Shown: positions 1 through 43,043 of the stretch, in pieces
Layout of the letters: every line of letters begins with the position of its first letter
How positions within the stretch are numbered: the stretch's first letter is position 1
Source: an uncultured Gammaproteobacteria bacterium
GTDB taxonomy: Bacteria > Patescibacteriota > Microgenomatia > Levybacterales > UBA12049
Length of the DNA stretch: 64,000 nt
Reading direction: 5' to 3'
Assembly: GCA_964490105.1 (NCBI GenBank)
Contig: CAZAZU010000001.1
Span: 710,245 to 774,244, forward strand
Position numbers and translations under genes: made by a program
The notes under the pieces: generated by a model
What the model was told of the DNA's origin: nothing
Databases searched by the model: none
The model's input: the letters and a program-made list of their open reading frames with translations, nothing else

Positions 1-1038
1 CTATCTACTGCCCTTATTACTCCTGTATCAATTTTAGTTTTAAAAAAATTAAAAATAGTAGATGATCCAAAAGTCAGAAAACACCCGGCTATAATTCACA
101 ATAAGCCTATTCCAAGAGGCGGTGGAATACCGCTTTTTATTGGAACCCTAATTGCTGGAATTATTTTTCTGCCAATCAATCAAATAACAATCGCAATTTA
201 TTTTGCTGCATTTATTTCACTCTTAGTAGGAGCTCTTGACGATAAATTTGATATCTCTCCTTACGTAAGATTTATAGTAAATATTTTCTGCGCAGTGATA
301 GTTGTAGCAGCTGGAGTCAGTGTAAACTTTATTACTAACCCACTCGGAGGAATTCTTTATCTAAACGAACTTCGTCTTCCTATAGAATTCTTAGGGATTG
401 GGATGGTAATTACGCTTTCTCATGTCGTCGCGGTTCTTTGGATAGTTTGGGTGATGAACATGCTTAACTGGAGTAAGGGAGTTGATGGACAAATGCCTGG
501 AATTGTCGCAATCTCTGCAATTTTTATAGGAATTTTAAGCTTAAGGTTTGGTACCGGAGATAGCCTTACGCAGACAACAACTTCTCTTTCATTTATCATT
601 TCAGGAGCGGCTATTGGATTTTTAATCTACAATTTTCATCCTGCAAGAATTTTTCCAGGATATGGTGCTACCGCCATCTATCTTCTTTTAGCTGTAGTTT
701 CAATTTTATCAAGCGCAAAATTAGCGACTGCAATTTTAGTTATGGGAGTTCCTTTAGCAGACGGTGCATTTACAATTGGAAGAAGAATCTTAACTGGTCA
801 TTCTCCATTTTGGCATGATAAAAAACATCTTCACCATCTCCTACTTTCGTCAGGTCTTGGACAAAGACGAATCGCGTTGTTTTACTGGGTAATTTCTGCT
901 ATATTTGGTTCACTTTCCCTAGTTCTTTCAAGTCGCGGCAAAATCTTTGCCATAATAATGCTTGTAATTATCGTAGGAGGAACTTTACTATTTTTAAATT
1001 ATTTAATCAGAAAGAAAAATGGGACGCAAAGCATATAA
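1..1038 (+). CDS. 5'-truncated glycosyltransferase family 4 (WecA/TagO/MraY-like polyprenyl-phosphate HexNAc-1-phosphate transferase)
   Basis: Frame 1 is open from base 1 and in frame with the 295..1038 ORF. The translation has HNKPIPRGGGIPLF and VGALDDKFD motifs typical of GT4 WecA/MraY enzymes, and is polytopic. Confidence 0.7.
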   Translation, partial: LSTALITPVSILVLKKLKIVDDPKVRKHPAIIHNKPIPRGGGIPLFIGTLIAGIIFLPINQITIAIYFAAFISLLVGALDDKFDISPYVRFIVNIFCAVIVVAAGVSVNFITNPLGGILYLNELRLPIEFLGIGMVITLSHVVAVLWIVWVMNMLNWSKGVDGQMPGIVAISAIFIGILSLRFGTGDSLTQTTTSLSFIISGAAIGFLIYNFHPARIFPGYGATAIYLLLAVVSILSSAKLATAILVMGVPLADGAFTIGRRILTGHSPFWHDKKHLHHLLLSSGLGQRRIALFYWVISAIFGSLSLVLSSRGKIFAIIMLVIIVGGTLLFLNYLIRKKNGTQSI

Positions 1039-1966
1039 CATTTTAAGGTTACTTAGGCCTCGTCAGTGGGTTAAAAACTTCGCTATTTTTGCTGCTGTTA
1101 CTTTTACCGGAGAATTATTTAATCCTGTAGCAGTACTCCCTGTAATAGTTGGATTCTTTATTTTCTGTGCTGTTTCATCAGCAACTTACATCATCAATGA
1201 TATTTTTGACATTAAAAATGACAAGATGCATCCTTTTAAAAGATTCAGGCCTCTTGCCCACGGAGATGTAAATGTAAAATTTGCCGGAATACTAGCAGCA
1301 TTTTTAATTGTCGTGTCTCTATCTTTATCGATTTTAGTAAACCCAACCTTCTTCCTATTTATAATAGTATATCTACTCCTTCAAGTTCTTTATTCAAGTG
1401 TCCTAAAAACAATAACAGTAATCGACATTCTTGCAATTGCTGCAGGATACATTCTTAGAGTTTTAGGCGGAGAATTTGCAAGCGGATATCACATTTCAGT
1501 ATGGCTTTTATTAACTACAATTTCTATTTCACTATTCTTAGCTATTGGAAAAAGAAGGTCAGAGCTTACTCTTCTTGCATCTAGTAAAATCGATAATTTA
1601 GCGTCCACCAGAAGAACCTTATCGCACTATTCTGAAAGATTACTTGATGTTTATGCGTCAATCTTTGCGACCAGCACATTTATAGCGTATTCATTATTTA
1701 CATTTCTAGAAAATCCTGAAGGCATACATCTTCCAATTTTCGGAGTTTTTCTGGAAGACATCTTACCGAATTTTTTCCAGAGAAAATGGCTCATGCTTAC
1801 AATCATTCCGGTAGTTTATGGGCTCATGAGATATCTACAGGATATTTATGAAAAACATGAAGGGGAAAGTCCGGAAAAAGTACTGTTTTCAGACAAGCCA
1901 CTTTTAATTACAGTTAGCATTTGGGCTTTAATGGTAATATTCATTATCTACTTTATCGGCACTTAA
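1019..1966 (+). CDS. UbiA-family prenyltransferase, resembling decaprenyl-phosphate phosphoribosyltransferase (DPPR synthase)
   Basis: N-terminal RPRQWVKN motif followed by NDIFDIKNDK (Asp-rich UbiA motif); multi-TM. Overlaps the upstream GT4 gene by 20 nt. Confidence 0.65.
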   Translation: MGRKAYNILRLLRPRQWVKNFAIFAAVTFTGELFNPVAVLPVIVGFFIFCAVSSATYIINDIFDIKNDKMHPFKRFRPLAHGDVNVKFAGILAAFLIVVSLSLSILVNPTFFLFIIVYLLLQVLYSSVLKTITVIDILAIAAGYILRVLGGEFASGYHISVWLLLTTISISLFLAIGKRRSELTLLASSKIDNLASTRRTLSHYSERLLDVYASIFATSTFIAYSLFTFLENPEGIHLPIFGVFLEDILPNFFQRKWLMLTIIPVVYGLMRYLQDIYEKHEGESPEKVLFSDKPLLITVSIWALMVIFIIYFIGT

Positions 1967-6687: not shown

Positions 6688-7866
6688 TTGCCAAGTATAG
6701 GTCTAAGTAAACCAACATTCTCGAAAAAGAAACTCCTTTTGCTAGGATTTTTACTGGTGATCCTCTTGGTAATACCAGTAACTGTATTTTTAGTACAACA
6801 GCAGCAGAATTTACAGAGCCAAGCTAACCCAAACACCACTCTTTCATTTGTGCCCCCTGATAAAACAGCATCCGTTGGAGAAAAAATAGATTTTGACATA
6901 TGGATTTCTCCGGGGAATAATCAAGTAAACTTCGTAAAGCTTGTTATAAAGTTTGATGCTACGAAACTCTCAACCAAAAAAGAATACTTCGAGCTAAATC
7001 GTGCATCCAATTTATCCGTAATTGAAGGACCAATAATAGGTGACGACGGAGACAGCATATCGGTAATTCTTTCTGTGGAAAATGACCCGACTAAAGTAAT
7101 TCGAGCAGATACAAAAATTGGAACTATAAGCTTTGATACTTTGGAAGCTGCTGATCCGCCAACTCAGATAGCTTTTGATGATCAGCAGGTGCAAATCCGC
7201 TCTATTAATGGAGCAAATCAGGATGCATTTAATGAAAATGTATTCCTAAATGGAACTCCAGCGACTGTTACTATACAAGGAGACGCTGATGTGACTCCAG
7301 ACCCAGATGCGACATTAACTCCCAGAGCTACGTTAACGCCAACAATTACTCTCGCTGCTACTTTCACACCTACCCCTACCTCAACTAACTCCGGTGAAGG
7401 ATCTTCTCCTGCAACCAATCAAGCTCCGGTTTGCGAAAGCCTGATTACAGACAGAAGCACAGATGGCACAGCTCCTCTATCGCTTACTTTTACAGCTGCT
7501 GGATCTGATACTGATGGAACTATAAGTAAAGTCACGTTTAGTTTTGGTGATGGAACAGTTGAAGACGTAACTACAGGTGGCGGAATCGGCACTGACACTG
7601 TAAACGTTCAAAAATCATTCACATATAATAATGCAAATAGTTTCACTGCATCTGCTCTTATGACTGACGACAGCGGAGAAGTAAGTAGCGATAGTACTTC
7701 TTGTGCGGTAACTGTAACTGTGTCTGATGGGGACGGATCTGGATCAACAGTAGATAGCGGCGGCGCTACGGTAGCACCAACTGGACCAACTGAAACGATA
7801 TTTGGAATTGGAGCAATCGGTGGACTACTATTCATAGTCGGAGCTCTCCTCTTCTTCGCCCTATAA
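6688..7866 (+). CDS. Cell-surface protein with N-terminal TM/signal, Thr/Pro-rich linker, PKD-like module and C-terminal hydrophobic anchor
   Basis: TTG start about 12 nt after a TTGACA/TATACG promoter. Has TPTITLAATFTPTPTSTN linker, FSFGDGTVEDVTT (PKD-like) and a C-terminal VAPTGPTETIFGIGAIGGLLFIVGALLFFAL. Confidence 0.6.
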   Translation: MPSIGLSKPTFSKKKLLLLGFLLVILLVIPVTVFLVQQQQNLQSQANPNTTLSFVPPDKTASVGEKIDFDIWISPGNNQVNFVKLVIKFDATKLSTKKEYFELNRASNLSVIEGPIIGDDGDSISVILSVENDPTKVIRADTKIGTISFDTLEAADPPTQIAFDDQQVQIRSINGANQDAFNENVFLNGTPATVTIQGDADVTPDPDATLTPRATLTPTITLAATFTPTPTSTNSGEGSSPATNQAPVCESLITDRSTDGTAPLSLTFTAAGSDTDGTISKVTFSFGDGTVEDVTTGGGIGTDTVNVQKSFTYNNANSFTASALMTDDSGEVSSDSTSCAVTVTVSDGDGSGSTVDSGGATVAPTGPTETIFGIGAIGGLLFIVGALLFFAL

Positions 7867-11774: not shown

Positions 11775-12314
11775 ATGCAATCTTCTGCCTCTATCAATCT
11801 AATCAAGAGTAAATCTAATCTTATTGATGAAATTTTAAGATGGGCTTTAAGCGTCGGGAGGCTTTTAATTATTCTTACAGAAATTGTGGCTTTCTCCACA
11901 TTTATCTATAGATTCACACTTGATAGAACCCTAATCGATTTACACGATAAAATAAAACAAGAACAAGCAATTGTCGCAAGTCTTAAGGACAGAGAGGCAA
12001 GTTATAGAAATTTACAAGGTAGGCTTAACGATGCCGCTAGCATTACGACAAACGGAAACAAAAATGTAAAAATTTTAAATGATCTTATTACTGCAACTCC
12101 ATCTGAAATTACATATAATTCTTTTGAAATTGGAGAAGGCGTCGTCTCCATCGATTCAAATATTCAATCTATTTCTTCATTAACAAACTTCCTTGCAATA
12201 ATTAGAGACTATCCCGAGACCAGCTCTGTAACAATAGATAGAATTGACAACCAATCTCTAACTAATTCAGTGAATGTCCTGATAACAATTAAACTAAAAG
12301 GAGCACCCATCTAA
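11775..12314 (+). CDS. PilN-like type IV pilus assembly protein
   Basis: N-terminal INLI(K) motif (compare PilN INLLP), a single TM, then a coiled-coil and a periplasmic domain of about 100 aa. Confidence 0.5.
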   Translation: MQSSASINLIKSKSNLIDEILRWALSVGRLLIILTEIVAFSTFIYRFTLDRTLIDLHDKIKQEQAIVASLKDREASYRNLQGRLNDAASITTNGNKNVKILNDLITATPSEITYNSFEIGEGVVSIDSNIQSISSLTNFLAIIRDYPETSSVTIDRIDNQSLTNSVNVLITIKLKGAPI

Positions 12315-12916
12315 TGAAAAAAGTATTTAAAGGTATAAAATATGAAAAATATTACAAAGATATTCTTCCGTATTTAAAAAAACAGAAGAATCAGGAATAT
12401 TTTGCAATTATACTAACTCTTGGAGCTACTATATTTTTCGCTCTTTTTGCGATAAATCCTACTATCTCTACAATAGTTAAGCTTAGAAAAGAAATAGAAG
12501 ACAGCAAATTCGTAGAGTCTGCGCTTACCAAAAAAATTAATAATTTGTCTAGTCTTTCCACTGAATATTCTGTGATTCAATCGGATATTCCAGTCGTCCT
12601 TGATGCTATTCCGGAACAACCACAAGCCCCTACGCTTGTTGGACAAATTCAAACAATTGCGCAAGGCTCTAATGTTGTAATTGAAAAGCTGGATGTATCA
12701 GAAGTCGGACTAAATGAAGCAGGCGCATCTACCAGTTCTAAATTTAGCTTTGAATTAACAGGAACATCAAATTATGAAAGTCTTGACAGCTTCATTTCAG
12801 AACTTATTACTATGCAAAGAATAGTTTCTCTGGAAAAAATTTCTTTAACCAAGAATTCAGATTCTGAAACTTTGCAATTAGACATAAAAGGCTCAGCATA
12901 TTACAAGAAAGAATGA
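12314..12916 (+). CDS. PilO-like membrane protein
   Basis: Short cytoplasmic N-terminus, single TM (FAIILTLGATIFFALFAI), coiled-coil and periplasmic domain; coupled to the PilN-like gene. Confidence 0.45.
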   Translation: MKKVFKGIKYEKYYKDILPYLKKQKNQEYFAIILTLGATIFFALFAINPTISTIVKLRKEIEDSKFVESALTKKINNLSSLSTEYSVIQSDIPVVLDAIPEQPQAPTLVGQIQTIAQGSNVVIEKLDVSEVGLNEAGASTSSKFSFELTGTSNYESLDSFISELITMQRIVSLEKISLTKNSDSETLQLDIKGSAYYKKE

Positions 12917-13230
12917 AACAAAAAGATTTACTCATCCTGCTAATTCCGATGTTTTTAATAACTGTTCTCTGGGTGATATTTAATATTTATCATAATCACA
13001 TTAGCTCAACTATCACTGATCCATTAACAGTGCAAATTATTCCCATTGATGGAAAATTTAACAGAGCTTCACTCGAAAGCATAAAAGACCGAAAAAGAGT
13101 AGAACCTTTATTCATCGCGCCTGTAATTGAAGTTGATGATGCGCCGCCTACGATTTCACCTACCCCCATAGCGCAAATAACTGGAACAGCAAGTCCATCT
13201 GCTGCGCCAACAAACCAGCAAGATCTTTAA
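12913..13230 (+). CDS. Small single-TM protein with Pro/Thr/Ser-rich C-terminal tail
   Basis: 4-nt overlap with the upstream gene; TM at residues 6-25; tail APPTISPTPIAQITGTASPSAAPT. Confidence 0.4.
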   Translation: MKQKDLLILLIPMFLITVLWVIFNIYHNHISSTITDPLTVQIIPIDGKFNRASLESIKDRKRVEPLFIAPVIEVDDAPPTISPTPIAQITGTASPSAAPTNQQDL

Positions 13231-13235
13231 TTTTT

Positions 13236-14330
13236 ATGAAGAATTTATGGACTAAAAAAATTCCAACACTAATAGGACTTCTGCTAATTAGCGTAGGAAC
13301 CATATTAACGACATTTTTAGTAAGGGGCGACACAATTTTTCAAATTAGAGCAGGCCCAGGCGAAGATCCAAAGAACATAAAAATAACTAATGTGTCCGAT
13401 AGCGCCTTTACTGTTACCTATCTAACTGACGACAAAGTAATAGGTACCGTTAACCATGGAATTGATCCAAATAATTTAGACGGAATTTCGCTTGATGACA
13501 GAGATCAACTATCTCAGCAAATAAATAAATATAATTCTCACTCAATTACTGTAAGAAACTTAGACCCTAATACTAAATACTATTATAGTATTAACTCCGG
13601 ATCCAAAAAATATCAGGATACAGGATTTAAATTTGAAGTAACAACGCATGGAGAAATTTCAGAAAACCCCTCTTCCCAGATTCCGGTGAGCGGAAGGGTA
13701 GTTCTCCCGGATGGAACGGGCCCGAACGATGGCATAGTGTATGTAAAAATTAAAGATGCTGAAACAATCTCATCTCTTTTAAAAGAACGCGGATCGTATA
13801 CAGTTCCCCTTAATGCTTTAAGAAAATTAGACTTAGATGAATATTTAGAAATTAACGAGAATACAATTATCAATATTGATATTTTTTCTGGAGGATTATA
13901 TTCTTCAGTAAGTGTCACACCGAACGAAATTAATCCAGTTCCTCTAGTTACGCTTTCCGGAAATTATGATTTCTCAAAAACAAACGAAAATAATAAAGAA
14001 AACAATAATCAAGAGAGTTCATTTCCAAAGTTTGGTCAGTTAAACCAACAGGGAGGGGTAAATAGAATGATTTCACAAACACCAACACCTAGCCCAACTC
14101 CAACCCCAAACCCTTCGCCGACTACTGTAAGAATAAGTCCTAGCGCTAGCCCTACTCCAACCATTTTTACCCCGACTCCTACCCCGTCAACAATAACACA
14201 GATAAGCCCTTTACCAACCCTCCCCCCAACTGGAAATCCTTCTGTTATAATTGCTAGTATTGTCGGATTTGTAGCCACAATTTCTGGAATAATTGCATTA
14301 TTTTTCACCAGGATAAAGGACACAATATGA
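13236..14330 (+). CDS. LPXTG-type sortase-substrate surface protein with FN3-like domain and long Thr/Pro-rich linker
   Basis: N-terminal signal/TM. NIKITNVSDSAFTVTYL...KYYY resembles FN3. The linker is TPTPSPTPTPNPSPTT...TPTPTPST. C-terminus is LPPTGN + hydrophobic segment + RIKDTI. Confidence 0.6.
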   Translation: MKNLWTKKIPTLIGLLLISVGTILTTFLVRGDTIFQIRAGPGEDPKNIKITNVSDSAFTVTYLTDDKVIGTVNHGIDPNNLDGISLDDRDQLSQQINKYNSHSITVRNLDPNTKYYYSINSGSKKYQDTGFKFEVTTHGEISENPSSQIPVSGRVVLPDGTGPNDGIVYVKIKDAETISSLLKERGSYTVPLNALRKLDLDEYLEINENTIINIDIFSGGLYSSVSVTPNEINPVPLVTLSGNYDFSKTNENNKENNNQESSFPKFGQLNQQGGVNRMISQTPTPSPTPTPNPSPTTVRISPSASPTPTIFTPTPTPSTITQISPLPTLPPTGNPSVIIASIVGFVATISGIIALFFTRIKDTI

Positions 14331-15595
14331 AAATTGGAATTATTGGAGCTGGTTTTACCGGATTATCAGCAGCATACTATTTACAAAAAGATGGACACGA
14401 GGTTACAGTTTTTGAAAAAGACGAAATTCCTGGTGGACTCGCTCTTGGATTTAAAGAAAATGTTTGGGACTGGACCCTTGAAAAGCACTATCATCACTGG
14501 TTCACGAACGATAAAAGTGTTTTGGATTTAGCAAAGGAGATAAACCATGATGTTCTAATTAAAAGACCAATCACCTCTGTTTATTTGAATGACGGAAAAA
14601 TTTATCAGCTCGATTCGCCAATTGCAGTTCTGAAATTTGCAAAATTATCTATCCTTGAAAGATTACGAATGGCTGCAGTCTTAGGTTTATTTTTTAAATA
14701 TAATCCTATCTGGAAACCTCTTGAAAAAATAAATGCCGAGCCTTTTCTCAAATCATCGATGGGGAAAAAAACTTATGAATTAATTTGGGAACCTCAGCTT
14801 TTAAGTAAATTTGGAAAATATAAAAATGATGTTTCTCTTGCTTGGTTTTGGGCAAGAGTTCACAAGAGAACAACAAAGCTCGCATACCCCAACGGAGGTT
14901 TTTTAGATTTTGCTAACCATCTAGTTAAGGAGGTCGAGAAAAAAGGCGGGAAAGTACTATTTAAATCAGGGGTAGAAAAAATTGAAAGCAATAAAAAAGT
15001 AATCATAAAAGCTGATGGTAAAAAATTTGAATTCGATAAAGTCATTGTCACCCTCCCGTCCTTCTACTTCTCAAAGATTGCAGATCTTCCAGAAAGTTAC
15101 TTAAAAAAAATGTCGAACTTAAAAGGCCTAGGAGCGATCAACCTTGTTCTAAGACTGAAAGAGCCTTTCTTTAAAGATTCAACGTATTGGCTAAGCGTAT
15201 GCGATAAGGAAGCTCCAATCTTGGCAATTGTAGAACATACGAATTTTATGGATAAGAAAAACTATAACAATGAAAATTTACTTTATTTAGGAAATTATCT
15301 GCCTTCTGATCATCCATATTTCTCAATGGATAAAAAAGATATATTAAAAAAATATGATCCGTTTTTAAAAAAATTAAATCCTGATTATGGTAAGAGCATT
15401 ATCGATTTCGAGGCATTTAAGGCTCCTTTCGCTCAACCAATAATTCCTGTCAATTATTCAAAGATGATTCCACCAACTGAGACACCCCTAAAAAATGTGT
15501 ATTTAGCAAATATTCAGCAGGTCTATCCATGGGACCGAGGAACTAATTATGCAGTTGAACTGGGAAAAAAAGTAGCAGAACAAATAAGTAAATAA
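14327..15595 (+). CDS. FAD/NAD(P)-binding oxidoreductase (amine-oxidase/UGM-like Rossmann family)
   Basis: MKIGIIGAGFTGLSAAYYL...VFEKDEIPGG dinucleotide-binding motif; 4-nt ATGA overlap with the upstream gene. Confidence 0.65.
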   Translation: MKIGIIGAGFTGLSAAYYLQKDGHEVTVFEKDEIPGGLALGFKENVWDWTLEKHYHHWFTNDKSVLDLAKEINHDVLIKRPITSVYLNDGKIYQLDSPIAVLKFAKLSILERLRMAAVLGLFFKYNPIWKPLEKINAEPFLKSSMGKKTYELIWEPQLLSKFGKYKNDVSLAWFWARVHKRTTKLAYPNGGFLDFANHLVKEVEKKGGKVLFKSGVEKIESNKKVIIKADGKKFEFDKVIVTLPSFYFSKIADLPESYLKKMSNLKGLGAINLVLRLKEPFFKDSTYWLSVCDKEAPILAIVEHTNFMDKKNYNNENLLYLGNYLPSDHPYFSMDKKDILKKYDPFLKKLNPDYGKSIIDFEAFKAPFAQPIIPVNYSKMIPPTETPLKNVYLANIQQVYPWDRGTNYAVELGKKVAEQISK

Positions 15596-17232
15596 TGAGA
15601 TTCAAAAATCTTATTAATAAATATGCCTCAGAAATTATAGTGCTCTTTATTGGATCCTCCTTCGGTTTTATTTTATTTTTTTCTACTTTTTTTAAAGATG
15701 GAGATAAAATTTATATTGCATCAAAAGCATGGAGCGACTTCGCAAGTCACATACCCCTAATTAGGTCTTTTTCTTTAGGTTTTAATTTTCCCCCACAGTT
15801 CCCATTATTTCCAGGGGAACCAATTAAATATCATTTTATTTTTTATTACCTTGTGGGAATCTTAGAGAAAATTGGATTAAACATCGTACTTGCTCTAAAC
15901 ATCCCATCATTCTTAGGTTTTGTTTTTCTAATATTTATGATTTATTTTTTCGCTAAAGAACTATTCAAATCAAAATCTGTAGGAATTTTAAGCGTAATAT
16001 TTTTTCTATTTAATTCATCTCTTACTTATATTTATTTTTTTAAGAAATATCCGCCTTCAATTGATTCAATAAGTCAAATAATTAAGAACGCCGATTTCCT
16101 TTCTTTTGCTCCTTACGGAGATGGGATTATTTCTGCCTTCTGGAATCTTAATATCTACACAAATCAAAGACACTTAGCAGTTTCCTTTGGACTATCTCTT
16201 TTAATAATTTATTTGTCTATAAAGCCACTCATCAAAAATGAAAATCCAAAAATCCGGACATACGTAATACTGGGAAGCATTTTAGGATTAAGCTTTTATT
16301 TACATACCGCTGTATTTTTAATGACAATAATTATTATGGGAGCACTTTTAATCCAGCTTAAAGGATTAAGAAAAAATATTTTCGTCCTAATGTTAGCCGC
16401 TGCAGCAATTTCCCTGCCTCAGTACTTCTACTTGACCTCATCTCCTGGATTTTCTCCACATCTTCAAGCAGGATATTTGATTTCAGGAGATCTAAACCCT
16501 AAAAATATTATAGAGTTTTGGGTCTATAATTTAGGAATTTGCTTATTTCTTATTCCCCTAGGATTTATATTTGCAAATAAATTTCAAAGAAATATTCTTT
16601 TTTCATTTTTTATGCTATTTATTGTTGGGAACACAATTCAGTTTTCTCCGGAAATTGCAGCAAACCATAAATTCTTTAATTTCTTTTTAATCTTAGGAAA
16701 TATGTTTTCTGCTTTTATAATTATTAAGATATTTAAAAAGAAAGTTATTTCCGCTTTGGCAATTATATTAGTTATTTTTATGACATTGGGAGGAATCATA
16801 GATTTATTCCCGATTGTTAATGATAGAAAGTATGAATTGAATGATCATAAAACAAATGCTGATGCGAAATGGATTCTAGAAAACACTGAAAAAGATTCCA
16901 TTTTTCTAAATACAATATTTCTCTATAACCCAGCTTCGATTGCAGGAAGAAAGATATTTTTAGGTTGGCCATATTTTGCCTGGTCCCAAGGATATGACAC
17001 CTATAAAAGAGGTGACGTTATTAAATCCATACTAAGCTCTACTAATAAATCTGAAGCATGTAGTCTGCTTTTAGAAAGTAGTATTGATTATGTTGAGATA
17101 AAAATTCAAGACCCTCCTGATCCAAATGTACCCACCATTTCGAGTCTTTATGAAGAAGAATTTACCAAATCTTATGAAAATATAAATAATAATTATTCAA
17201 TTTATAGTGTTCACAAAAACTGCGGATTGTAA
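15595..17232 (+). CDS. Polytopic membrane protein, putative GT-C-fold glycosyltransferase
   Basis: About 12 predicted TM segments; N-terminal architecture (TM, loop with DGDK, further TMs) resembles ArnT/PMT-like enzymes. Family not assigned. Confidence 0.5.
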   Translation: MRFKNLINKYASEIIVLFIGSSFGFILFFSTFFKDGDKIYIASKAWSDFASHIPLIRSFSLGFNFPPQFPLFPGEPIKYHFIFYYLVGILEKIGLNIVLALNIPSFLGFVFLIFMIYFFAKELFKSKSVGILSVIFFLFNSSLTYIYFFKKYPPSIDSISQIIKNADFLSFAPYGDGIISAFWNLNIYTNQRHLAVSFGLSLLIIYLSIKPLIKNENPKIRTYVILGSILGLSFYLHTAVFLMTIIIMGALLIQLKGLRKNIFVLMLAAAAISLPQYFYLTSSPGFSPHLQAGYLISGDLNPKNIIEFWVYNLGICLFLIPLGFIFANKFQRNILFSFFMLFIVGNTIQFSPEIAANHKFFNFFLILGNMFSAFIIIKIFKKKVISALAIILVIFMTLGGIIDLFPIVNDRKYELNDHKTNADAKWILENTEKDSIFLNTIFLYNPASIAGRKIFLGWPYFAWSQGYDTYKRGDVIKSILSSTNKSEACSLLLESSIDYVEIKIQDPPDPNVPTISSLYEEEFTKSYENINNNYSIYSVHKNCGL

Positions 17233-18495
17233 ATGACGGAAGTAAAAAAATTTTTAATTCATATTCTTGGAAGCAAATTATTAATCTTGGGATTCTTAAT
17301 ATACTTTCTGTTTAATCTATCTGCATTAAAAACAAACTGGCTAGATTACTTCTTCTTCGGAAGCTCTCTTCACTACTGCTGCCAAGGAATTGATTTCTAT
17401 GGAATACCAAATGGCGTTTATTCATTTATCAACGGGGGCGAACTAAGCGGAGGAGGCTTACCCGAAAACATTAAGCCTTTTTCAAGAAATATTACGAGCA
17501 ATCCAAATGATTATCATCCTATCACTGCTTTTGTCATGGGCAGTCTAATTATTGTTTTTAATTATCAGAATGTTTTCTATTATTGGATGGTTGCTAAAAT
17601 ATTAATCACGATTTTTATTGCGTACTATATATACAAAAACTTCCCTGATAATAAATTTCTAAATCTTTCAATTTTTGTTTTTTTAACAAATTTTGCTCAA
17701 TATAGTGAAATTCGAATTTCTCAATATCAATTTCTATTTAATACTTTCCTTTTACTATTTTCGATTAGCTTAGTAAAGAAAAAGGAAGAACTCGAAAGGG
17801 GGATTTTATTTTTTCTTACATTGATTGCAAAACCAATTAGCCTCCTTTTCTTACCTGTTTTATTTATTAAAAATAATTACAAACCAGCATTAATCGGAGG
17901 AAGTATTTTTATCGCTTCAACTCTTACTTTTAACATATTGGGAATTGGAAATTACTTTACGGACAACCTAATTTATCATCTTTTAAATCCTAAGGAGGGA
18001 AAATCCATTGACTACATGTCTCTAGAGGCATTTTTAAGATACACTTTTAATCTATCTCCGGAATTTATTAAATACCTTAAGTATCTTGTGCTCGTATCAA
18101 TATATTTAATTACATTGAACAAAAGAACTCATATTCTAACTATTATTTTCTTTTTAATCTCATATTTCCTATTCTTTTATGATCATCTTTTCCAATATCA
18201 CTTTAGCGTTTTGGGTCCACTCCTAGCAATTTGCCTCCTAACACTTCCAAACTTTCAAACAAAATTTGCAAAATTACTCATTTTCGCAATCTGTCTACCG
18301 ACGGTTTTCTTTATCCTGAGAGTATTTAATTTTGAATTTATTATGGATCCTGTCTATGGTCCAAATCCTACCACGAAAGGCTGGCAAATAACATCATTCT
18401 TTCAATTGTTGCCGTTAACAATTTTATTCGTAATAATATTTATAAAAGAGATCCCCATGATAAAACCTGAAAAATTAAAATTTATAAAAAAATGA
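17233..18495 (+). CDS. Polytopic membrane protein (putative glycosyltransferase or flippase-like)
   Basis: Hydrophobic throughout with 10 or more TM segments; directly coupled to flanking genes. Confidence 0.45.
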   Translation: MTEVKKFLIHILGSKLLILGFLIYFLFNLSALKTNWLDYFFFGSSLHYCCQGIDFYGIPNGVYSFINGGELSGGGLPENIKPFSRNITSNPNDYHPITAFVMGSLIIVFNYQNVFYYWMVAKILITIFIAYYIYKNFPDNKFLNLSIFVFLTNFAQYSEIRISQYQFLFNTFLLLFSISLVKKKEELERGILFFLTLIAKPISLLFLPVLFIKNNYKPALIGGSIFIASTLTFNILGIGNYFTDNLIYHLLNPKEGKSIDYMSLEAFLRYTFNLSPEFIKYLKYLVLVSIYLITLNKRTHILTIIFFLISYFLFFYDHLFQYHFSVLGPLLAICLLTLPNFQTKFAKLLIFAICLPTVFFILRVFNFEFIMDPVYGPNPTTKGWQITSFFQLLPLTILFVIIFIKEIPMIKPEKLKFIKK

Positions 18496-19880
18496 AAAAA
18501 CTAAAAGAACAAATCAGAGAACATGTTTTTGTTTTAATTTCAATTGTCTTTTTTCTTATATTAACTATTCCCTTCATAAACACACTTCCATATATGGATG
18601 GTAATATCGACTTTGTTCAGACTCTAGATTTTTATCAGGGAGGCATGAGTCAATATTTCTCAAATTGGAACACGGTACATCCTCCATTAAAACTATTACT
18701 TACGACGCCTCTTTATTTAATTTTTGGAGTATCACCAATAAGCTATTCTGCGCTTGGAATTATTTTTGGAATTATTGGGATTACTTCTATATATTTTTTA
18801 ACTAAGGAACTTTTTGGAAAATTTTCAGGGAATTTAGCAGCTTTGTTTTTTTCGATTTATCCATTATTTATCGCAAATTCAATATTTTCGATGCGAGACG
18901 CAATAGTGACTTCTTTAATTATCTGTTCACTTCTATTTTATAAAAGAAAAAATTTAATTCTCTATGGCTTAATATCTTCACTTGCAGTCCTTACAAAAGA
19001 AACAGCTCTACTTCTACCCTTAATTATTATTTTTATTGAGGTTATCTTTTTCTTTAAATCCAGAAAACTAAACATTAAATCATCTATAAATTATTTACTT
19101 CTATTTATACCTTTAGGCGTTTACTACATTTGGAAACTTATACTAAGCTCATACGGTAAAGATTCCTGGAGCGAATGGATATTTACAGAAACAGGAGAAA
19201 AAGGTGCAATCTTTACTATCATAAATAACTTAACTACCCTTGGATTCATAAATGCTTATTCGCAGTGGCATTGGAAGCAAGTTATATTTCTTAACTTTAA
19301 CTGGCTATATATTTTAATTATTATTTCCGCGGTTATTTTATATATATTTAATTTCAAAAAAATAAAATTTCATAAAAATATAGAAAACCTTAAAGTATTA
19401 CTAGCAATTATTTTATTTGTCACATCATATTTTCTAACTGTTCTTTCTCTTCAAACCTATACAATCCCTAGGTATGCGCTGCCTGTTATTCCGTTTTTAA
19501 TTATTGGGCTTTCAAAAAGTATTACTGCTCTAAAAAATGACATTGCGGTAAAATCTGCAGGAATCTTATTATATTTAATTATTTTAATTTCTCTTTTTAG
19601 CTCAGTTGATCCAGTTGCTAAAAAAATATGGGGGAACATAAATATTTTTGATAATAATATTTATGCTTTAAATGATCATATGGCAGGAAACGATGGCATA
19701 ACATATAATATTCAATATCTTTTTATTGCAAAAGAAAGATCAGAAATGATAAAAAAAGCAAAAGACATTGAACTAGTAAGCGGATACTGCAGATGGATAT
19801 TACCAGATCCTAATAACGAAGTGAAAATGCTAAAAGAACTTAATCTTAATCCTGCTCTGTATTGTATTCAAATTAGATAA
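18492..19880 (+). CDS. Glycosyltransferase family 39/83 (ArnT / protein O-mannosyltransferase-like, PMT_2)
   Basis: HPPLKLLLTTPLY, SMRDAIV, KETALLLP and SYFLTVLSLQTYTIPRYALP are typical of ArnT/PMT GT-C enzymes. Confidence 0.65.
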   Translation: MKKLKEQIREHVFVLISIVFFLILTIPFINTLPYMDGNIDFVQTLDFYQGGMSQYFSNWNTVHPPLKLLLTTPLYLIFGVSPISYSALGIIFGIIGITSIYFLTKELFGKFSGNLAALFFSIYPLFIANSIFSMRDAIVTSLIICSLLFYKRKNLILYGLISSLAVLTKETALLLPLIIIFIEVIFFFKSRKLNIKSSINYLLLFIPLGVYYIWKLILSSYGKDSWSEWIFTETGEKGAIFTIINNLTTLGFINAYSQWHWKQVIFLNFNWLYILIIISAVILYIFNFKKIKFHKNIENLKVLLAIILFVTSYFLTVLSLQTYTIPRYALPVIPFLIIGLSKSITALKNDIAVKSAGILLYLIILISLFSSVDPVAKKIWGNINIFDNNIYALNDHMAGNDGITYNIQYLFIAKERSEMIKKAKDIELVSGYCRWILPDPNNEVKMLKELNLNPALYCIQIR

Positions 19881-22009
19881 TGCCAATACTGGATCTCTTA
19901 TATATATTCAAATGGTGGGCAGTTTTTTTCTTTATAGGAATATCTTTTCTGCCGCTATCCTCAAAAATATTTGGCTCTTTCATAGATAAAGGCTACATTT
20001 TTTCTAAAGTTCTAGGACTGGTATTAGTTTCATACATCATTTATGTATTAGGAACATTTCATTTACTAAAGTTCACTACACAAAACATATTTATCGTCTG
20101 GATTCTAATCGCAACTACGTCCATATTCTTTTTAAGAAAAGAAAATTTTAATTTAAAGAAAAATTTAAAGATATTTCTATTTGAAGAAATAATATTTCTA
20201 ACTACACTCATAGCCTGGTCCTTTGTTAGGGCTCATCAGCCTGACATTCATGATTTAGAAAAATTCATGGATTATGGTTTTATTAATTCTATTCTAAGAT
20301 CTGAATATTTCCCCCCTCGCGATATGTGGCTTACGCCTCTATCAATAAACTACTACTATTTCGGTCATCTTTTTACAGCTGTTGCGACAAAAGCATCAGG
20401 TATCCCTTCTTTTATAACATTCAACTTAATGATTGCTACGATTTTTGCATTTACATTCACTCTTTCATTTTCAATCGGAATTAATTTGATTCAGCAAATC
20501 AAAAAAATTTCACTTAAGAAAACTTTTATTCTAGGTTTTATTTTTGCTTACGTTGTTTCGTTGTCAGGAAATTTGCAAACTATTTTTTCGCTTTTTAAAA
20601 ATTATAACGGAGAGACGCCGGTTCCATTCTGGGAACTACCCTTATCTATTTTTACATTTCCCAACGGATACTGGTATCCAAATGCCACCAGATTTATTTA
20701 CCACACTATTCATGAATTCCCTTCATATTCATTTGTCGTAGCAGACCTGCACGGACACGTCCTCGATATTCCGATTGTAATTACCCTAATTGCATTTGCA
20801 CTTTTAATGTTTTTAGAAAACAAAATTAGAATTTCGCTAGTTATATTAACATCATTTTTTATTTCCATTGCCTACATGACCAACGCATGGGACGGACTTA
20901 TATACATAGGGTTATTCATAAATATTCTATTCGTTTTAGAATTTATAAATAATAAAAATAAAAAAATTACTAATAGATTTATAAATTCCTTTTTGAAATC
21001 TTTAAGATTCATACCAATAATTGGCGCTTTATTTTTTATTTTCACCTTTGTATTCAGCCAGAACTTCGCGCCATTTGCTTCTGAAATAGGAATTAACTGT
21101 TCACCAAAGCTTTTGTTGGAAATGAAAAGCTTCGGACCGTTCGTTTTCGAAGAAGGTCAGTGTCAACGCTCACCACTTTGGCAACTTGGAATACTATACG
21201 GATTTTTTATATTTATGCTGACGGGATTTTTTATATTCATAAAAAATAGAAAAATAATTCCTACTGATATTTTTGTAGGAGTAATATCTCTATTCTCAAT
21301 TCTTTTATTAATTGCTCCTGAGATAATTTACTTAAAAGATATTTATACTGGACATTTCAGAGCAAATACAATGTTTAAATTGGCATATCAAGCCTTCATA
21401 ATGCTCTCTTTTTCAAGCATTTACATATTTTTTAGAATTCTCTCATCATTCAAGACTGAATTTAAATCTAAATTCTCAAAAGTATCAGTTATAATATTTT
21501 CAATTATTGGTTTTACCCTGCTATTTATTGTTTCCATCTATCCCTACTTTTCAGTTCCTTCGGGTTACGGAGATTTAAAAACATATAAAGGCCTGAATGG
21601 AACAAATTATCTTAAAACCCTAAAACCCGGAGACCATGATGCCATAATCTGGATAAATCAAAACATAAAAGGCCAACCGGTAATCCTGGAGGCTCAAGGA
21701 GATTCATATACTGACTTTGCAAGAATCTCAGCAAACACAGGTCTTCCTACAGTGCTTGGATGGACGGTTCATGAATGGCTTTGGCGAGGAACATATGACG
21801 TACCATCTGCTAGATTTTCTGACATTCAAAATCTCTATGAATCAAAAGATCAGAACTTAACTAAAAGTATAATAAAAAAATATGATATTTCATATGTCTA
21901 TATCGGAGGCATGGAAAGAGAAAAATATAAAATATCTGAAGAAAAATTTTCTGAATTAGGATTCCTAATTTACGCTAAAGGAACATCTAGGATATATAAG
22001 ATCCGTTAA
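19880..22009 (+). CDS. YYY-motif membrane protein (DUF2298 / Chlor_Arch_YYY family), putative oligosaccharyl/glycosyl transferase
   Basis: PPRDMWLTPLSINYYYFGH motif; 709 aa with many TM segments and a C-terminal soluble domain. Confidence 0.6.
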   Translation: MPILDLLYIFKWWAVFFFIGISFLPLSSKIFGSFIDKGYIFSKVLGLVLVSYIIYVLGTFHLLKFTTQNIFIVWILIATTSIFFLRKENFNLKKNLKIFLFEEIIFLTTLIAWSFVRAHQPDIHDLEKFMDYGFINSILRSEYFPPRDMWLTPLSINYYYFGHLFTAVATKASGIPSFITFNLMIATIFAFTFTLSFSIGINLIQQIKKISLKKTFILGFIFAYVVSLSGNLQTIFSLFKNYNGETPVPFWELPLSIFTFPNGYWYPNATRFIYHTIHEFPSYSFVVADLHGHVLDIPIVITLIAFALLMFLENKIRISLVILTSFFISIAYMTNAWDGLIYIGLFINILFVLEFINNKNKKITNRFINSFLKSLRFIPIIGALFFIFTFVFSQNFAPFASEIGINCSPKLLLEMKSFGPFVFEEGQCQRSPLWQLGILYGFFIFMLTGFFIFIKNRKIIPTDIFVGVISLFSILLLIAPEIIYLKDIYTGHFRANTMFKLAYQAFIMLSFSSIYIFFRILSSFKTEFKSKFSKVSVIIFSIIGFTLLFIVSIYPYFSVPSGYGDLKTYKGLNGTNYLKTLKPGDHDAIIWINQNIKGQPVILEAQGDSYTDFARISANTGLPTVLGWTVHEWLWRGTYDVPSARFSDIQNLYESKDQNLTKSIIKKYDISYVYIGGMEREKYKISEEKFSELGFLIYAKGTSRIYKIR

Positions 22010-23100
22010 GGAATTTGTGAAACGATGCACTCTTCTTGAGTTAATCTACATCTTATAAATTCGTGAATTTCTGAATAATCTCTTTCTCCAATTCTAGGTA
22101 CCAAAGTCCATTCAAAATTATATTTTTCACTAATAGGTGGATGCGTTAAAAGTCCGCCCCTATCATTCTCCTGATCTCCATAATCAATCACAACACTCTG
22201 TATTTTTGCATTTTGGAATTTTTGCGCAAGCTTTACAAAATCATCTAATTCAGTGTCTTTAATATCAGTGTCAACACTTTGCCCCACAGCATTATATAGA
22301 CCAACAATTTTTGTAGGATTAAATATTATCTCAAGGGAAAATATTTTATCCATAAATGCTTTAATAACTTTTTCCTGTCTTTGGGACCTAGCAAAATCAG
22401 TTCCTTCCTCTCCTTTTGCATGTCGCGACCTAACAAATTTAAGAGCAGTTTCTCCATCCATATGATTAATTCCTTTATCAAAATGCAAATGCTCGTAGCG
22501 ACATGGGAAAACTTCTAACTGAGAAGAAACGGTTGCTAACTTATCAAGATCTTCCTCCTTATTATCACACGGATCATCTTCTCTTCCTGTAATAGGGTAT
22601 TCATAATCGTCAAATGTTCTTTCGACTTCAATATCAAGCCCCCCTACTAAATCCACTGCTTTTACAAATCCTGAAAAATCAATTACAACTCCATAGTCTA
22701 TATTTTGTCCCGTAATTTTACTTGCAACAGATTTTGCTAGAACTAATCCTCCACCTTCTTTCCTAAGCTCTCCTTTAGCATAAGCTGTATTTATTTTCCC
22801 ATCAACATCAAACGACCAAACATCCCTTGGCAAAGAAACTAAGGTTACTTTAGATTCCTTTATGTTCAGACTTGCAAAAATAAGAGTATCTGAAAGGTTC
22901 GGCCCTTCATGTTTTCCGCCTCCTATTCCAAGAAGTAAAATATTTATCGTGTGCTGATCAGTTTTCTTAAGATCTATATTTTTATTAAAAATAATTTGAA
23001 AAATAAGAGGAGATAAATTTCCGCCTTTTATAATAACCTCCATACCGAGCACCACTACAAAGAATAGAAAAATGAAAAGTTTTTTAAACAGCATTTCCAA
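22006..23100 (-). CDS. LytR-CpsA-Psr (LCP) family cell-wall polymer ligase
   Basis: N-terminal TM; LSDTLIFASLN...LVSLPRDVW and FSGFVKAVDLVGGLDIEVE match the LCP catalytic domain. Confidence 0.8.
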   Translation of the reverse strand: MEMLFKKLFIFLFFVVVLGMEVIIKGGNLSPLIFQIIFNKNIDLKKTDQHTINILLLGIGGGKHEGPNLSDTLIFASLNIKESKVTLVSLPRDVWSFDVDGKINTAYAKGELRKEGGGLVLAKSVASKITGQNIDYGVVIDFSGFVKAVDLVGGLDIEVERTFDDYEYPITGREDDPCDNKEEDLDKLATVSSQLEVFPCRYEHLHFDKGINHMDGETALKFVRSRHAKGEEGTDFARSQRQEKVIKAFMDKIFSLEIIFNPTKIVGLYNAVGQSVDTDIKDTELDDFVKLAQKFQNAKIQSVVIDYGDQENDRGGLLTHPPISEKYNFEWTLVPRIGERDYSEIHEFIRCRLTQEECIVSQIP

Positions 23101-27126: not shown

Positions 27127-27411
27127 TTAGATTTTAAGAATTACCTTGGCTTTTATTTGATTCCTTTTAACAGATCCGAACCGACGACTATCAAAACTGT
27201 CTTTTTTATTGTCTCCTACCAAGAAGTATTTTCCCTTTTCTATCTTAGCAATTCTCTTAATATAAAATCTGTTGAATTTTTCAAAAACCACTACATCTCT
27301 TTTTTTTGGACGAGCAAAAATTAAAGGCAGGGAACTTACCAAAACATTATCTCCTTCTGAATAAGTTGGGGCCATCGAGTGGCCAGATATTTTAAAACGA
27401 GAAAGAAGCAT
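27127..27411 (-). CDS. sodX: Ni-SOD maturation protease SodX (S26 signal-peptidase-like, TM-less)
   Basis: Has SGHSMAPT (catalytic Ser) and GDNKKDSFDSRRFG, the SPase I box. Only 94 aa with no TM. Its start overlaps the sodN stop. Confidence 0.65.
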   Translation of the reverse strand: MLLSRFKISGHSMAPTYSEGDNVLVSSLPLIFARPKKRDVVVFEKFNRFYIKRIAKIEKGKYFLVGDNKKDSFDSRRFGSVKRNQIKAKVILKI

Positions 27412-27911
27412 TAACTTTGTACCACAATTTCTAGGCCGGTAGGGAATGGGGCTTTTACCCTATGGGATTCAAGTCCTTTTGATTTATAAAATATTTCAGC
27501 GATCAACATTACTTTTTCCAAAAGCTCTTTTGCGCTTTCCATATCTATTCCGGTTCTTGCTTTTGCTCCTAACTTTTTAGCATCTTCAAACAACGCTTCT
27601 AGTTCTGGAAATTTTGAGAAATTATTTTTAAAATAATCATCCTCAAGAGTTGAAAGCTCGTGCTCTAAAATATTTGAATGTTCTTCCTTTACATGAGTTA
27701 CCCGACTAACATCATGCTCTGCTTTTAACTCATCATCGCGCTTAATCAAACTTAAAAGCTCGGTCATTCTTATAATAGTATGTGCGGCGACTTGAGCTTG
27801 ATGCGGATCATAAATCCCGCAAGGAATATCACAATGCGCATAAGCGGTTCTGGAAGGCAAAATATTTAATAAAAAACTAAGCTTCATGTGGAATGATAAT
27901 AGAAAACTCAC
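27411..27911 (-). CDS. sodN: Nickel-containing superoxide dismutase precursor
   Basis: After a propeptide of about 25 aa comes HCDIPCGIYDPHQAQ, the Ni-hook motif of Ni-SOD. Confidence 0.85.
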   Translation of the reverse strand: MSFLLSFHMKLSFLLNILPSRTAYAHCDIPCGIYDPHQAQVAAHTIIRMTELLSLIKRDDELKAEHDVSRVTHVKEEHSNILEHELSTLEDDYFKNNFSKFPELEALFEDAKKLGAKARTGIDMESAKELLEKVMLIAEIFYKSKGLESHRVKAPFPTGLEIVVQS

Positions 27912-32019: not shown

Positions 32020-32475
32020 GTGAGAGATTTATTAAGACTTATTGGATTTATTTTTATATGTCAGGCTGCGGGATTAATCGGATCCATCTTCACGTTCAAT
32101 TCAGTCAACACCTGGTACTTAACCTTAGAAAAACCATTCTTTAATCCTCCATCTTTTGTGTTTGGGCCAGTCTGGACAACTCTATACTTCTTAATGGGTG
32201 TATCATTATATTTAGTATGGGGAAAGAAAAAAACCGATTTAAAATGGTTCTGGATCCAACTTTCACTAAATACTGTTTGGTCAATTATATTTTTTGGATT
32301 AAAAAATCCGCTATTTGCTTTTATAATAATAGTTCTTCTTTGGATAAGTATTTTTCAGACGATCAAATCATTTAAAAAAGTAAATAAAAATGCTTCATAT
32401 CTTTTATATCCATATCTTTTTTGGGTAAGCTTTGCCTCTGTTCTAAATCTATCAATAGTAATTCTAAACAAGTAA
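32020..32475 (+). CDS. tspO: TspO/MBR tryptophan-rich sensory protein
   Basis: Five TM helices; GPVWTTLYFLMG and a Trp-rich sequence. Confidence 0.8.
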   Translation: MRDLLRLIGFIFICQAAGLIGSIFTFNSVNTWYLTLEKPFFNPPSFVFGPVWTTLYFLMGVSLYLVWGKKKTDLKWFWIQLSLNTVWSIIFFGLKNPLFAFIIIVLLWISIFQTIKSFKKVNKNASYLLYPYLFWVSFASVLNLSIVILNK

Positions 32476-42464: not shown

Positions 42465-43043
42465 ATGGCAATAAAAAAAGTAATAAAAGCAGGGGACTCT
42501 CGTTTAAAATCTAAAAATAAAATAGTGAAAAATGTTACATCATTAGAAATTAAAAAACTAATAAGAGATTTAACATCAACCATGTATAAAGTTGACTTAA
42601 TTGGAATTGCCGCTCCACAAATTGGAGAAAATTATATGGTTTTTATAACCCATCCAAGATCTACAAGAGCTAGAAAACTTGGAAAGACTGATAAATTAAG
42701 GGTGTACATAAATCCTAAAATTACATTTAAATCTCGGGATGAAAGCCTTATATATGAAGGCTGTGGAAGCGTTTCAGACTTCGGACCGGTTTTAAGACCA
42801 AGAGAGATTGAAATTTCTGCTACCGATGAAAATGGGAATAGATTTAAGATGCGAGCTGACGGAATATTAGCCCGTGTAATCCAACATGAAATGGATCATC
42901 TAGAAGGAATTGAATTTATACAAAAAGTCAGTGATTATTCAAAAATAATTGTCCAAGAGCATTATAGAAAGCAGATACGAAATTCTCCATTACAACGAAA
43001 AAATTCTCTAATAACGAAAATTGAATATCAGGAATTCAATTAG
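42465..43043 (+). CDS. def: Peptide deformylase
   Basis: GIAAPQIGE, EGCGSV and QHEMDHLEG motifs. Confidence 0.9.
   Translation: MAIKKVIKAGDSRLKSKNKIVKNVTSLEIKKLIRDLTSTMYKVDLIGIAAPQIGENYMVFITHPRSTRARKLGKTDKLRVYINPKITFKSRDESLIYEGCGSVSDFGPVLRPREIEISATDENGNRFKMRADGILARVIQHEMDHLEGIEFIQKVSDYSKIIVQEHYRKQIRNSPLQRKNSLITKIEYQEFN

Follow-up and report, generated by a model that had tools for sequence, protein, structure and literature searches.

Glycosyltransferases of the GT-C type work at the outer face of the membrane, where they transfer sugars drawn from polyprenyl-phosphate carriers. The mycobacterial set for arabinogalactan and lipoarabinomannan (LAM) comprises the WecA primer enzyme, the decaprenylphosphoryl-phosphoribose (DPPR) synthase Rv3806c, Rv3807c, DprE1/DprE2, AftA to AftD, EmbA to EmbC, GT87 mannosyltransferases and ligation by Lcp1. 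The reaction types of the decaprenyl-phospho-arabinose route and of pilin arabinosylation in Pseudomonas aeruginosa Pa5196 have been described (10.1101/2020.04.19.049825). In the LcpA-GspA system of Actinomyces oris, an LPXTG protein is glycosylated in a manner dependent on a LytR-CpsA-Psr (LCP) protein and is then anchored by sortase (PMC6381275). Here we compare these systems with ten genes (g1 to g10, positions 11775 to 23100) in a 64,000-nucleotide stretch of an uncultured member of the Levybacterales (Patescibacteriota, lineage UBA12049; contig CAZAZU010000001.1 of assembly GCA_964490105.1, positions 710,245 to 774,244), which we call the window. We conclude, with moderate confidence, that the locus is a single envelope operon whose two modules can be separated and which keeps a fixed position in a conserved backbone, and that the product of the second module is most likely a wall-linked glycopolymer, not demonstrably dedicated to the surface protein g4. 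An earlier note on this DNA had read the locus as a dedicated surface-protein O-glycosylation module. It is partly supported: its gene identifications were largely right, and its functional prediction is unproven and partly contradicted.

The two modules were recognized by comparing related loci. A scan with a g5 profile, keeping one genome per species, gave 80 loci, and a metagenome scan with four divergent g4 sequences gave 80 more, together about 160 Microgenomates loci, which were annotated by mapping the window proteins and family hidden Markov models. The layout was the same in both sets: LepA and MurJ on the minus strand, S20, then PilN, PilO, g3 and g4, a variable island, LCP and TIM on the minus strand, UvrD and FemAB. 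PilN-PilO-g3-g4 (module A) is invariant, and the island downstream of it (module B, g5 to g9 in the window) is variable. The nearest loci came from Candidatus Levyibacteriota metagenome-assembled genomes, one of which (L001) had an identical gene order and a g5 of 94% identity. The g6 gene was found in many loci, and g7 and g8 were limited to close relatives. Other islands carried PMT_2 paralogues, an extended short-chain dehydrogenase/reductase (SDR) of the epimerase/dehydratase kind (23 Levybacteria islands), a HAD-like protein of 184 amino acids (28 Levybacteria islands), GT4, GT2 or a methyltransferase. Of the diverse loci, 21 had at least 6 kb of sequence beyond g4; in 20 of these at least one GT-C gene lay between g4 and LCP, and in 15 a GT-C gene abutted LCP. 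The flavin (FAD) gene g5 and DUF2298, the family of g9, were each present in 13 of the same loci, and they co-occur (both in 12, only FAD in one, only DUF2298 in one, neither in seven). In a single relative, L081, only holA stands between g4 and LCP, and FAD and GT-C genes are absent, indicating that the two modules are separable. The g4 homologue of L081 (5533-6465, P0162) has a dockerin-like end (weak PF00404) and neither a Thr/Pro linker nor a membrane anchor. The gene order in relatives, which the earlier note had offered as a check, was therefore conserved for g1 to g4 and the flanks, and not for the island, whose content turns over and which L081 lacks. In another locus (L068:5812-9999), four tandem paralogues of about 300 amino acids (MTFLEK...) lie between g4 and g5; one of them was scanned and had no Pfam match.

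The nine genes g1 to g9 lie on the plus strand of a region of a window with about 34% G+C, and all nine start with ATG. Every coordinate and junction given previously was reproduced from the list of open reading frames (ORFs) and by direct reading. The junctions g1/g2 (12314), g5/g6 (15595) and g8/g9 (19880) read TAATG; those of g2/g3 (12913-12916), g4/g5 (14327-14330) and g7/g8 (18492-18495) read ATGA. At g6/g7 a TAA is followed directly by ATG (17232/17233), and g3 and g4 are separated by 5 nucleotides (nt). No other run of tight junctions in the window is as long as this one of eight. Of the 35 pairs of same-strand neighbours outside the region, 16 were joined by 5 nt or less. Given this base rate of 0.46, the run is unusual (about 0.46^8 = 0.002 in a naive independence model), and its unbroken length supports a single transcript. 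Gene overlap by itself is weak evidence of common function, and tight junctions here also join functionally unrelated genes (UvrD/FemAB, -4; LCP/TIM, -17). Across 80 related genomes the median junctions were 1 nt (g1/g2), 1 nt (g2/g3) and -4 nt (g3/g4), and the gap between S20 and g1 had a median of 58 nt. In the window, the stop codon of rpsT (S20) lies 59 nt before g1, with the divergent MurJ gene farther upstream, and the operon probably starts between S20 and g1. Scans of the region for promoters and terminators gave counts no better than those of shuffled sequence, and Rfam and tRNA scans found no RNA genes or elements in it.

Module A resembles the PilM-PilN-PilO(-PilP-PilQ) subcomplex of type IV pili in its PilO domain, in the topology and INLL(P)-type motif of its PilN-like protein and in the tight coupling of pilN and pilO. 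Its second protein is g2 (12314-12916, 200 amino acids), a bitopic PilO with one transmembrane (TM) segment at 29-47 (PF04350, 52.3 bits vs. a cut-off of 22, E=8.8e-14), as had been proposed. The PilN-like assignment of g1 (11775-12314, 179 amino acids) held by its SINLI motif in the cytoplasmic N-terminus and its single TM segment at 20-38, and did not hold by the Pfam score, which is below the gathering value (PF05137, 13.2 bits vs. 22.8, E=0.098). Its orthologues align with SINLL, SINLL(P), INLLP, INLLPNKG or INLLPHKG at the N-terminus, and PilN matches of homologues in the comparative set were weak or faint. The family thus shows the architecture of PilN, with an INLLP-type N-terminal motif, one TM segment and a position directly upstream of pilO. 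We take the INLLP-type motif to be the PilM-binding motif of the known PilM-PilN complexes. The small bitopic protein g3 (12913-13230, 105 amino acids) was correctly described before as a TM protein with a Pro/Thr tail. The alignment of its orthologues shows a TM segment, a conserved extracytoplasmic segment of about 40 residues (TSTI..L.vQI.PI..FD...lk.R) and a Ser/Thr/Pro-rich tail. It has no Pfam or NCBIfam match, always lies between PilO and g4, and was found in about 66 of the 80 genome loci and in nearly all metagenome loci. Judged by homology and motif, module A probably reaches from membrane to wall in a machine akin to the type IV pilus, in a cell that lacks an outer membrane; g3 and g4, by homology and position, would occupy the place of PilP and PilQ in diderms. 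It differs from the known subcomplex in that a small bitopic protein and a wall-anchored stalk protein with fibronectin type III (FnIII) domains replace PilP/PilQ, in that it adjoins rpsT, and in that no pilM, pilB/C or pilin gene is adjacent. The window yielded no PilM, and in all loci the gene immediately before module A is S20. Another candidate counterpart, the Pam pilus of the candidate phyla radiation (CPR), works by chaperone-usher-like donor-strand exchange and lacks PilN/PilO (10.64898/2026.03.03.709456); it was rejected.

The surface stalk protein g4 (13236-14330, 364 amino acids) consists of an N-terminal TM segment or signal (11-29), two FnIII-like beta-sandwich domains, a Thr/Pro linker (residues 281-337, 72% S+T+P), LPPTG (329-333), a TM segment (337-355) and the basic tail TRIKDTI. 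These features are those of an LPXTG sortase substrate (pentapeptide, TM segment, basic tail and N-terminal signal) and bear out the previous description of an LPXTG-type surface protein with a Thr/Pro linker. Short models such as TIGR01167 (LPXTG anchor) often score low, and g4 matched no NCBIfam family at E<=0.1, hence no curated anchor model. In Pfam it matched PF16656 (E=5.6e-8) and fn3. The AlphaFold model (pLDDT 86) shows the N-terminal helix and the two FnIII-like sandwiches, and a fold search returned generic FnIII tandems only, with no PilP/PilQ-like and no enzyme match. Of 148 family representatives, 134 had a C-terminal signal of the [LIV]Px[TSA]G-like kind followed by a TM segment, as did most of the 77 orthologues compared. 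The motif varied among orthologues (LPPTG, LPATG, IPKSG, SPG, PAAG), some of which lack the charged tail. The family comprises 1314 clusters (50% identity) at E<=1e-30. No sortase is encoded in the window; a sortase family is reported to be near ubiquitous among Microgenomates (PMC6744442). A second protein, encoded at 6688-7866 on the plus strand, also carries a Thr/Pro linker, followed by VAPTG and a TM segment (..LLFFAL), so neither the linker nor the C-terminal signal is unique to the operon. Its PKD domain match (E=1.5e-4, 22.1 bits) is under the 23.5-bit gathering cut-off. If linkers are glycosylated or sorted in a general way, this PKD protein may be one more substrate.

The FnIII stalk family is expanded in some lineages. 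Three tandem g4-like paralogues of 850-1000 amino acids lie at L155:9989-18558, and one protein of 3947 amino acids (P0329) has three g4-like stretches. Loci without the FAD gene often have two further bitopic proteins after g4. In many loci (L098, L103, L123, L132, L134, L151, L097 and L083) two conserved bitopic proteins directly follow g4. The first has 320-520 amino acids, starts with MDDxGL and has a Pro-rich N-terminus; the second has 176-248 amino acids and a NKKWLLWGLIGF-type TM segment. Neither has a Pfam match, and both may be additional components of module A.

Module B opens with g5 (14327-15595, 422 amino acids), the best-conserved gene of the locus. Its identity across the lineage is 60-70%, far above that of its neighbours, and more than 4500 homologues were found. 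The matches to PF01593 (E=2.5e-25) and to NCBIfam PRK07233 (NF005560, 405 bits vs. a cut-off of 252) confirm it as an FAD-dependent oxidoreductase, of the amine-oxidase/CrtI fold. The protein is cytoplasmic, as judged by the lack of a TM segment and by an N-terminal GxGxxG motif. A search of the g5 profile against the Protein Data Bank (PDB) returned only generic flavin amine oxidase/desaturase relatives and gave no functional clue.

The remaining island genes encode four membrane proteins: g6 (15595-17232, 545 amino acids), g7 (17233-18495, 420 amino acids), g8 (18492-19880, 462 amino acids) and g9 (19880-22009, 709 amino acids), with about 10, 7, 9 and 14 TM-like segments, respectively. Alone, g6 had no Pfam match. 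Its family profile aligned in hhalign with two PMT_2-type paralogue families (97%, E 1e-10 to 1e-11) and with the DUF2298 family (97% probability, 470 columns). The match of g7 to GT87 (PF09594) was borderline (E=3.1e-5, 24.3 bits vs. a cut-off of 25), and eight of nine g7 orthologues matched GT87, the best at 1.5e-8. For g8, the match to PF13231 (PMT_2) reached 40.4 bits vs. a cut-off of 26.1; a match to NF046093, a cell-surface glycopolymer formation family (E=2.3e-10, 40.1 bits), is under its curated value of 150. None of g6 to g9 matched PF02366, MIR or PMT_4TMC at E<=0.1, so the GT39 label given to g8 in the earlier note gives way to ArnT-like PMT_2. Acidic residues after the first TM segment were at least 90% conserved in all four families (D48 in g6; D38 and D54 in g7; D36 and D40 in g8; D36 in g9), and a PMT-type DE motif (D33-E34) was found in an island paralogue family of the relatives (fam_A). 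By their number of TM segments, first-loop acidic residues and recognized family or fold, g6 to g9 are of the GT-C type. Their conserved first-loop acidic residues would be the catalytic ones.

The DUF2298/Chlor_Arch_YYY protein g9 is usually the last island gene, abutting LCP. Its predicted structure is all-helical with a C-terminal soluble domain, and aligns with AftA, AftB and AftD. On this model, DUF2298/YYY has a GT-C fold, and its C-terminal domain may be like that of oligosaccharyltransferases. Neither g6 nor g9 had a match among the sequences of PDB chains, even when the g9 family profile was used. Two invariant motifs of g9, TIHEFP (TIHE at 276-279) and HEWLWRG (WLWRG at 633-637), are located in flexible loops, at positions that we take to resemble those of TIXE and WWDYG in STT3/AglB/PglB (a comparison without alignment). 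Unlike those enzymes, g9 lacks an STT3 sequence or Pfam match and the WWDYG motif, its invariant motif being HEWLWRG, and ArnT and ALG12 score equal or higher for its membrane domain. Within the limited library searched, we found nothing relevant on DUF2298, Chlor_Arch_YYY or GT-C enzymes in Patescibacteria.

The window has seven GT-C-type genes in total. A PIG-V-like one lies at 38592-39773. Two others, PTPS_related (49292-50953) and YfhO (50950-53343), share 4 nt and come after a DsbB gene (48859-49281); at its C-terminus, the YfhO protein weakly matches streptococcal PgfM1/2.

The island ends against g10 (22006-23100, minus strand), which converges with g9 and shares 4 nt with its stop (22006-22009). 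It is the LCP ligase that had been predicted at this place (PF03816, 108.9 bits vs. 24.6; TIGR00350, 88.2 bits vs. 62.3). About 10 kb upstream of the operon, a UbiA-family gene (1019-1966, plus strand) encodes a candidate partner, a polyprenyl-phosphate phosphoribosyltransferase of the DPPR-synthase type (NF008978, an equivalog model for decaprenyl-phosphate phosphoribosyltransferase; 220.8 bits vs. a cut-off of 207, E=2.2e-65). A short ORF of the WecA/MraY family (295-1038, 247 amino acids) overlaps the UbiA gene by 20 nt. Its match to the WecA model is confined to the C-terminal two thirds, and it may be truncated or have a misplaced start. Given the phosphoribosyltransferase, the WecA-like enzyme and the converging LCP gene, a wall-linked glycopolymer is the most likely product of the island.

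By analogy, the locus points to a mycobacterial-type glycan assembly driven by polyprenyl-phosphate sugars. The likeness to the mycobacterial and corynebacterial arabinogalactan/LAM systems lies in several GT-C enzymes in a row, one of them GT87-like, in the DPPR-synthase-type UbiA and WecA-family genes of the region, in the LCP gene adjacent to the island, in the structural alignment of g9 with the Aft enzymes, and in the FAD oxidoreductase, SDR and phosphatase-like gene that some relatives add to their islands. Unlike those systems, the locus belongs to a CPR phylum with a genome of about 0.8 Mb, its GT-C enzymes are of the PMT_2 and DUF2298 types and not of the Emb/Aft types, g5 has another flavoenzyme fold, and the island shares an operon with PilN/PilO. 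Homologues of DprE1 (VAO-type) and DprE2 (a classical SDR) were not seen among the window ORFs scanned.

In the mechanism that we propose, module B would be a variable glycan-assembly island made of an FAD oxidoreductase followed by four GT-C glycosyltransferases. A lipid-linked primer would be made first, in the manner of mycobacterial arabinogalactan. The GT-C enzymes would then extend the glycan outside the membrane with polyprenyl-phosphate sugars, with g5 supplying or modifying the donor for DUF2298, its co-occurring partner. LCP would ligate the finished glycopolymer to peptidoglycan. An additional or alternative outlet may be the Ser/Thr/Pro-rich stalks of surface proteins generally, such as g3, g4 and the PKD protein.

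Several observations weigh against this reading. First, LCP belongs to a conserved backbone, LCP-TIM-UvrD-FemAB, and keeps the same position in L081, where the island is missing; therefore it is not island-specific. Second, the loci L090, L091 and L159 have the phosphoribosyltransferase but lack g5, so g5 is not obligatorily tied to it. Third, the window contains no PilB/C/D, pilin gene or prepilin motif, and we infer the pilus role of module A from homology and motif, as we infer the donor sugar, acceptor and lipid carrier of the island enzymes. In addition, the housekeeping flanks (LepA, S20, TIM and UvrD) are equally syntenic, so that conserved order alone cannot prove coupling, and modules A and B may owe their adjacency to history and not to function. 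Finally, the tight coupling of g4 and g5 (median 4 nt in relatives; 10 nt or less in 41 of 75) and the Thr/Pro linkers are also expected if the island served a dedicated protein glycosylation.

The alternative that survives best, although we consider it unlikely, is the dedicated O-glycosylation proposed earlier, in which the GT-C enzymes act on the Thr/Pro linker of g4, and perhaps on the tail of g3, and enzyme and substrate are translationally coupled. The ATGA overlap of g4 and g5, with its conserved tightness, is in line with it, and so are the linkers, which are rich in S+T+P also across the family (median 48% before the anchor in 134 representatives) and lie outside the membrane, where GT-C enzymes act. 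The correlation between g4 linker and island is mixed. The sole island-less relative, L081, has a g4 without a Thr/Pro linker, as the dedicated model would have it. However, L006, L007 and L010 keep g5, g6, g7 and g9 with a g4 (278-286 amino acids) that lacks linker and anchor, and L104 has linker and anchor with no recognizable GT-C gene within 9 kb. Moreover, because the same linker and anchor occur on the unlinked PKD protein, any linker glycosylation would be general. The island turnover (SDR, HAD-like, GT2, GT4, methyltransferase) resembles that of a polysaccharide locus and exceeds the needs of simple protein mannosylation. Together with the separability seen in L081 and the three linker-less, island-positive relatives, it argues against a module dedicated to this LPXTG protein.

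The precedents for protein glycosylation fit in part. The actinobacterial and eukaryotic GT39 PMT enzymes share the GT-C fold and an acidic first-loop motif, of which the DE motif of fam_A is an example in the islands, and Thr/Pro-rich, acceptor-like linkers are encoded nearby here. Unlike them, g8 belongs to PF13231 and not to PF02366, MIR domains are absent, and four different GT-C enzymes stand in place of one. The LcpA-GspA pair of A. oris (PMC6381275) likewise has an LPXTG-type surface protein and an LCP protein in one neighbourhood, in a monoderm envelope; there, the LCP protein itself transfers the glycan and no GT-C array is present, whereas the LCP gene here is a backbone gene.

Decidedly unlikely, in our estimate, is a full pathway like that of decaprenyl-phospho-arabinose. 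UbiA would make a polyprenyl-phosphate ribose, g5 would oxidize it as a stand-in for DprE1, an SDR would reduce it to an epimeric pentofuranose donor, and the GT-C enzymes would polymerize it as Aft/Emb do, or act as TfpW does on Pseudomonas pilins. The pathway logic and a pilin precedent are available (10.1101/2020.04.19.049825), the DPPR-synthase-type gene of the window scores above its NCBIfam cut-off, and SDR and HAD-like genes recur in the Levybacteria islands counted above. L070 is the sole locus found with a UbiA gene inside the island. Its island (L070:1157-11672) reads FAD, DPPR-synthase-like UbiA, two GT-C-like genes, an extended SDR on the minus strand, a HAD-like protein of 181 amino acids, DUF2298 and LCP. 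The UbiA paralogue directly follows g5, has 42% identity to that of the window and has the same best family (180.7 bits, under the cut-off of 207). By analogy, the reaction types of this island are those of the mycobacterial decaprenyl-phospho-arabinose route and of the Pa5196 system. However, g5 has an amine-oxidase/CrtI fold and is not homologous to DprE1, which has a VAO fold; the island SDR of the relatives is extended and GalE/HpnA-like, not of the DprE2 type, and nucleotide sugars are possible substrates for it; the island of the window has no SDR and no HAD-like gene; and the phosphoribosyltransferase occurs in loci without g5. A replacement of DprE1 by g5 is therefore a minority hypothesis. 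A search for literature on phosphoribosyltransferase and arabinofuranose in Patescibacteria found nothing relevant, again within a limited library.

A more elaborate line, which we hold to be very unlikely, would place an "ER-like" pathway on the outer face. In it, the DPPR synthase would provide a pentose donor, g5 would serve in its epimerization as an unrelated DprE1 replacement, the PMT_2 and GT87 enzymes would extend a lipid-linked glycan, and g9 would be a divergent STT3/AglB-like oligosaccharyltransferase. Its targets would be the Ser/Thr/Pro stalks of a sortase-anchored FnIII protein that links the PilN/PilO platform to the wall.

Glycosylation of a type IV pilin by the GT-C enzymes, as by TfpW and TfpO/PglL in Pseudomonas and Neisseria, would explain the linkage to PilN/PilO, which lie directly upstream in the same operon. 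GT-C-mediated O-glycosylation of pilin is known (10.1101/2020.04.19.049825), and glycosylation of pilins has been proposed for Saccharibacteria (PMC11623550). As in Pa5196, a GT-C enzyme is here genetically associated with type IV pilus genes, a polyprenyl-phosphate pentose donor starting from DPPR synthase is conceivable and Ser/Thr targets are at hand. However, tfpW (next to pilA) and the other known transferase genes adjoin a pilin gene and not pilN/pilO, whereas the window has no pilin gene, prepilin motif or PilB/C/D/M. The Pa5196 system combines just one GT-C enzyme with a D-Araf biosynthesis cluster and includes true homologues of DprE1/DprE2. Since L081, too, has PilN/PilO without an island, this explanation seems highly improbable.

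That the membrane proteins are transporters or other non-glycosyltransferases in a chain that reflects mere genome compaction has a negligible chance of being right: tight junctions are indeed common between unrelated genes here and the single g6 sequence has no Pfam match, but the g6 family profile matches PMT_2/DUF2298, the g7 orthologues match GT87 and all four proteins carry acidic residues after the first TM segment, so the reading as unrelated transporters, which the earlier note had named as the outcome that would overturn its proposal, was rejected.

Apart from the operon, the window also carries two genes of the Beta-lactamase2 family (PF13354) and encodes a TspO/MBR protein and a superoxide dismutase of the nickel type; as a group they lie at 27411-27911, 32020-32475, 43036-43998 and 61359-62297. 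Such genes are seemingly unexpected in a small CPR genome.

We favour, then, an envelope operon in which a conserved pilus-like module is followed by a variable island for a wall-linked glycopolymer. No paper on this locus was found in the limited library searched. We know of no experimental work on the chemistry of the CPR/Patescibacteria envelope, and full-text searches turned up none. The tiny cells of these bacteria attach to hosts via surface structures. Well over a hundred genomes of Microgenomates have the locus at this one position, and it brings together the region's only recognizable pilus-platform genes and a group of GT-C enzymes that evolves fast. The most useful by-products of the analysis are the model-based fold assignment of DUF2298 and the possible polyprenyl-phosphate pentose chemistry. 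The locus offers the first leads to a function for DUF2298/YYY and the PRK07233 flavoenzyme, both large families of unassigned function, and polyprenyl-phosphate pentose chemistry of the mycobacterial type may extend far beyond Actinobacteria. Should the island produce a wall glycopolymer or glycosylate surface stalks, the variation among islands would probably help to determine specificity towards hosts, phages or immune systems.

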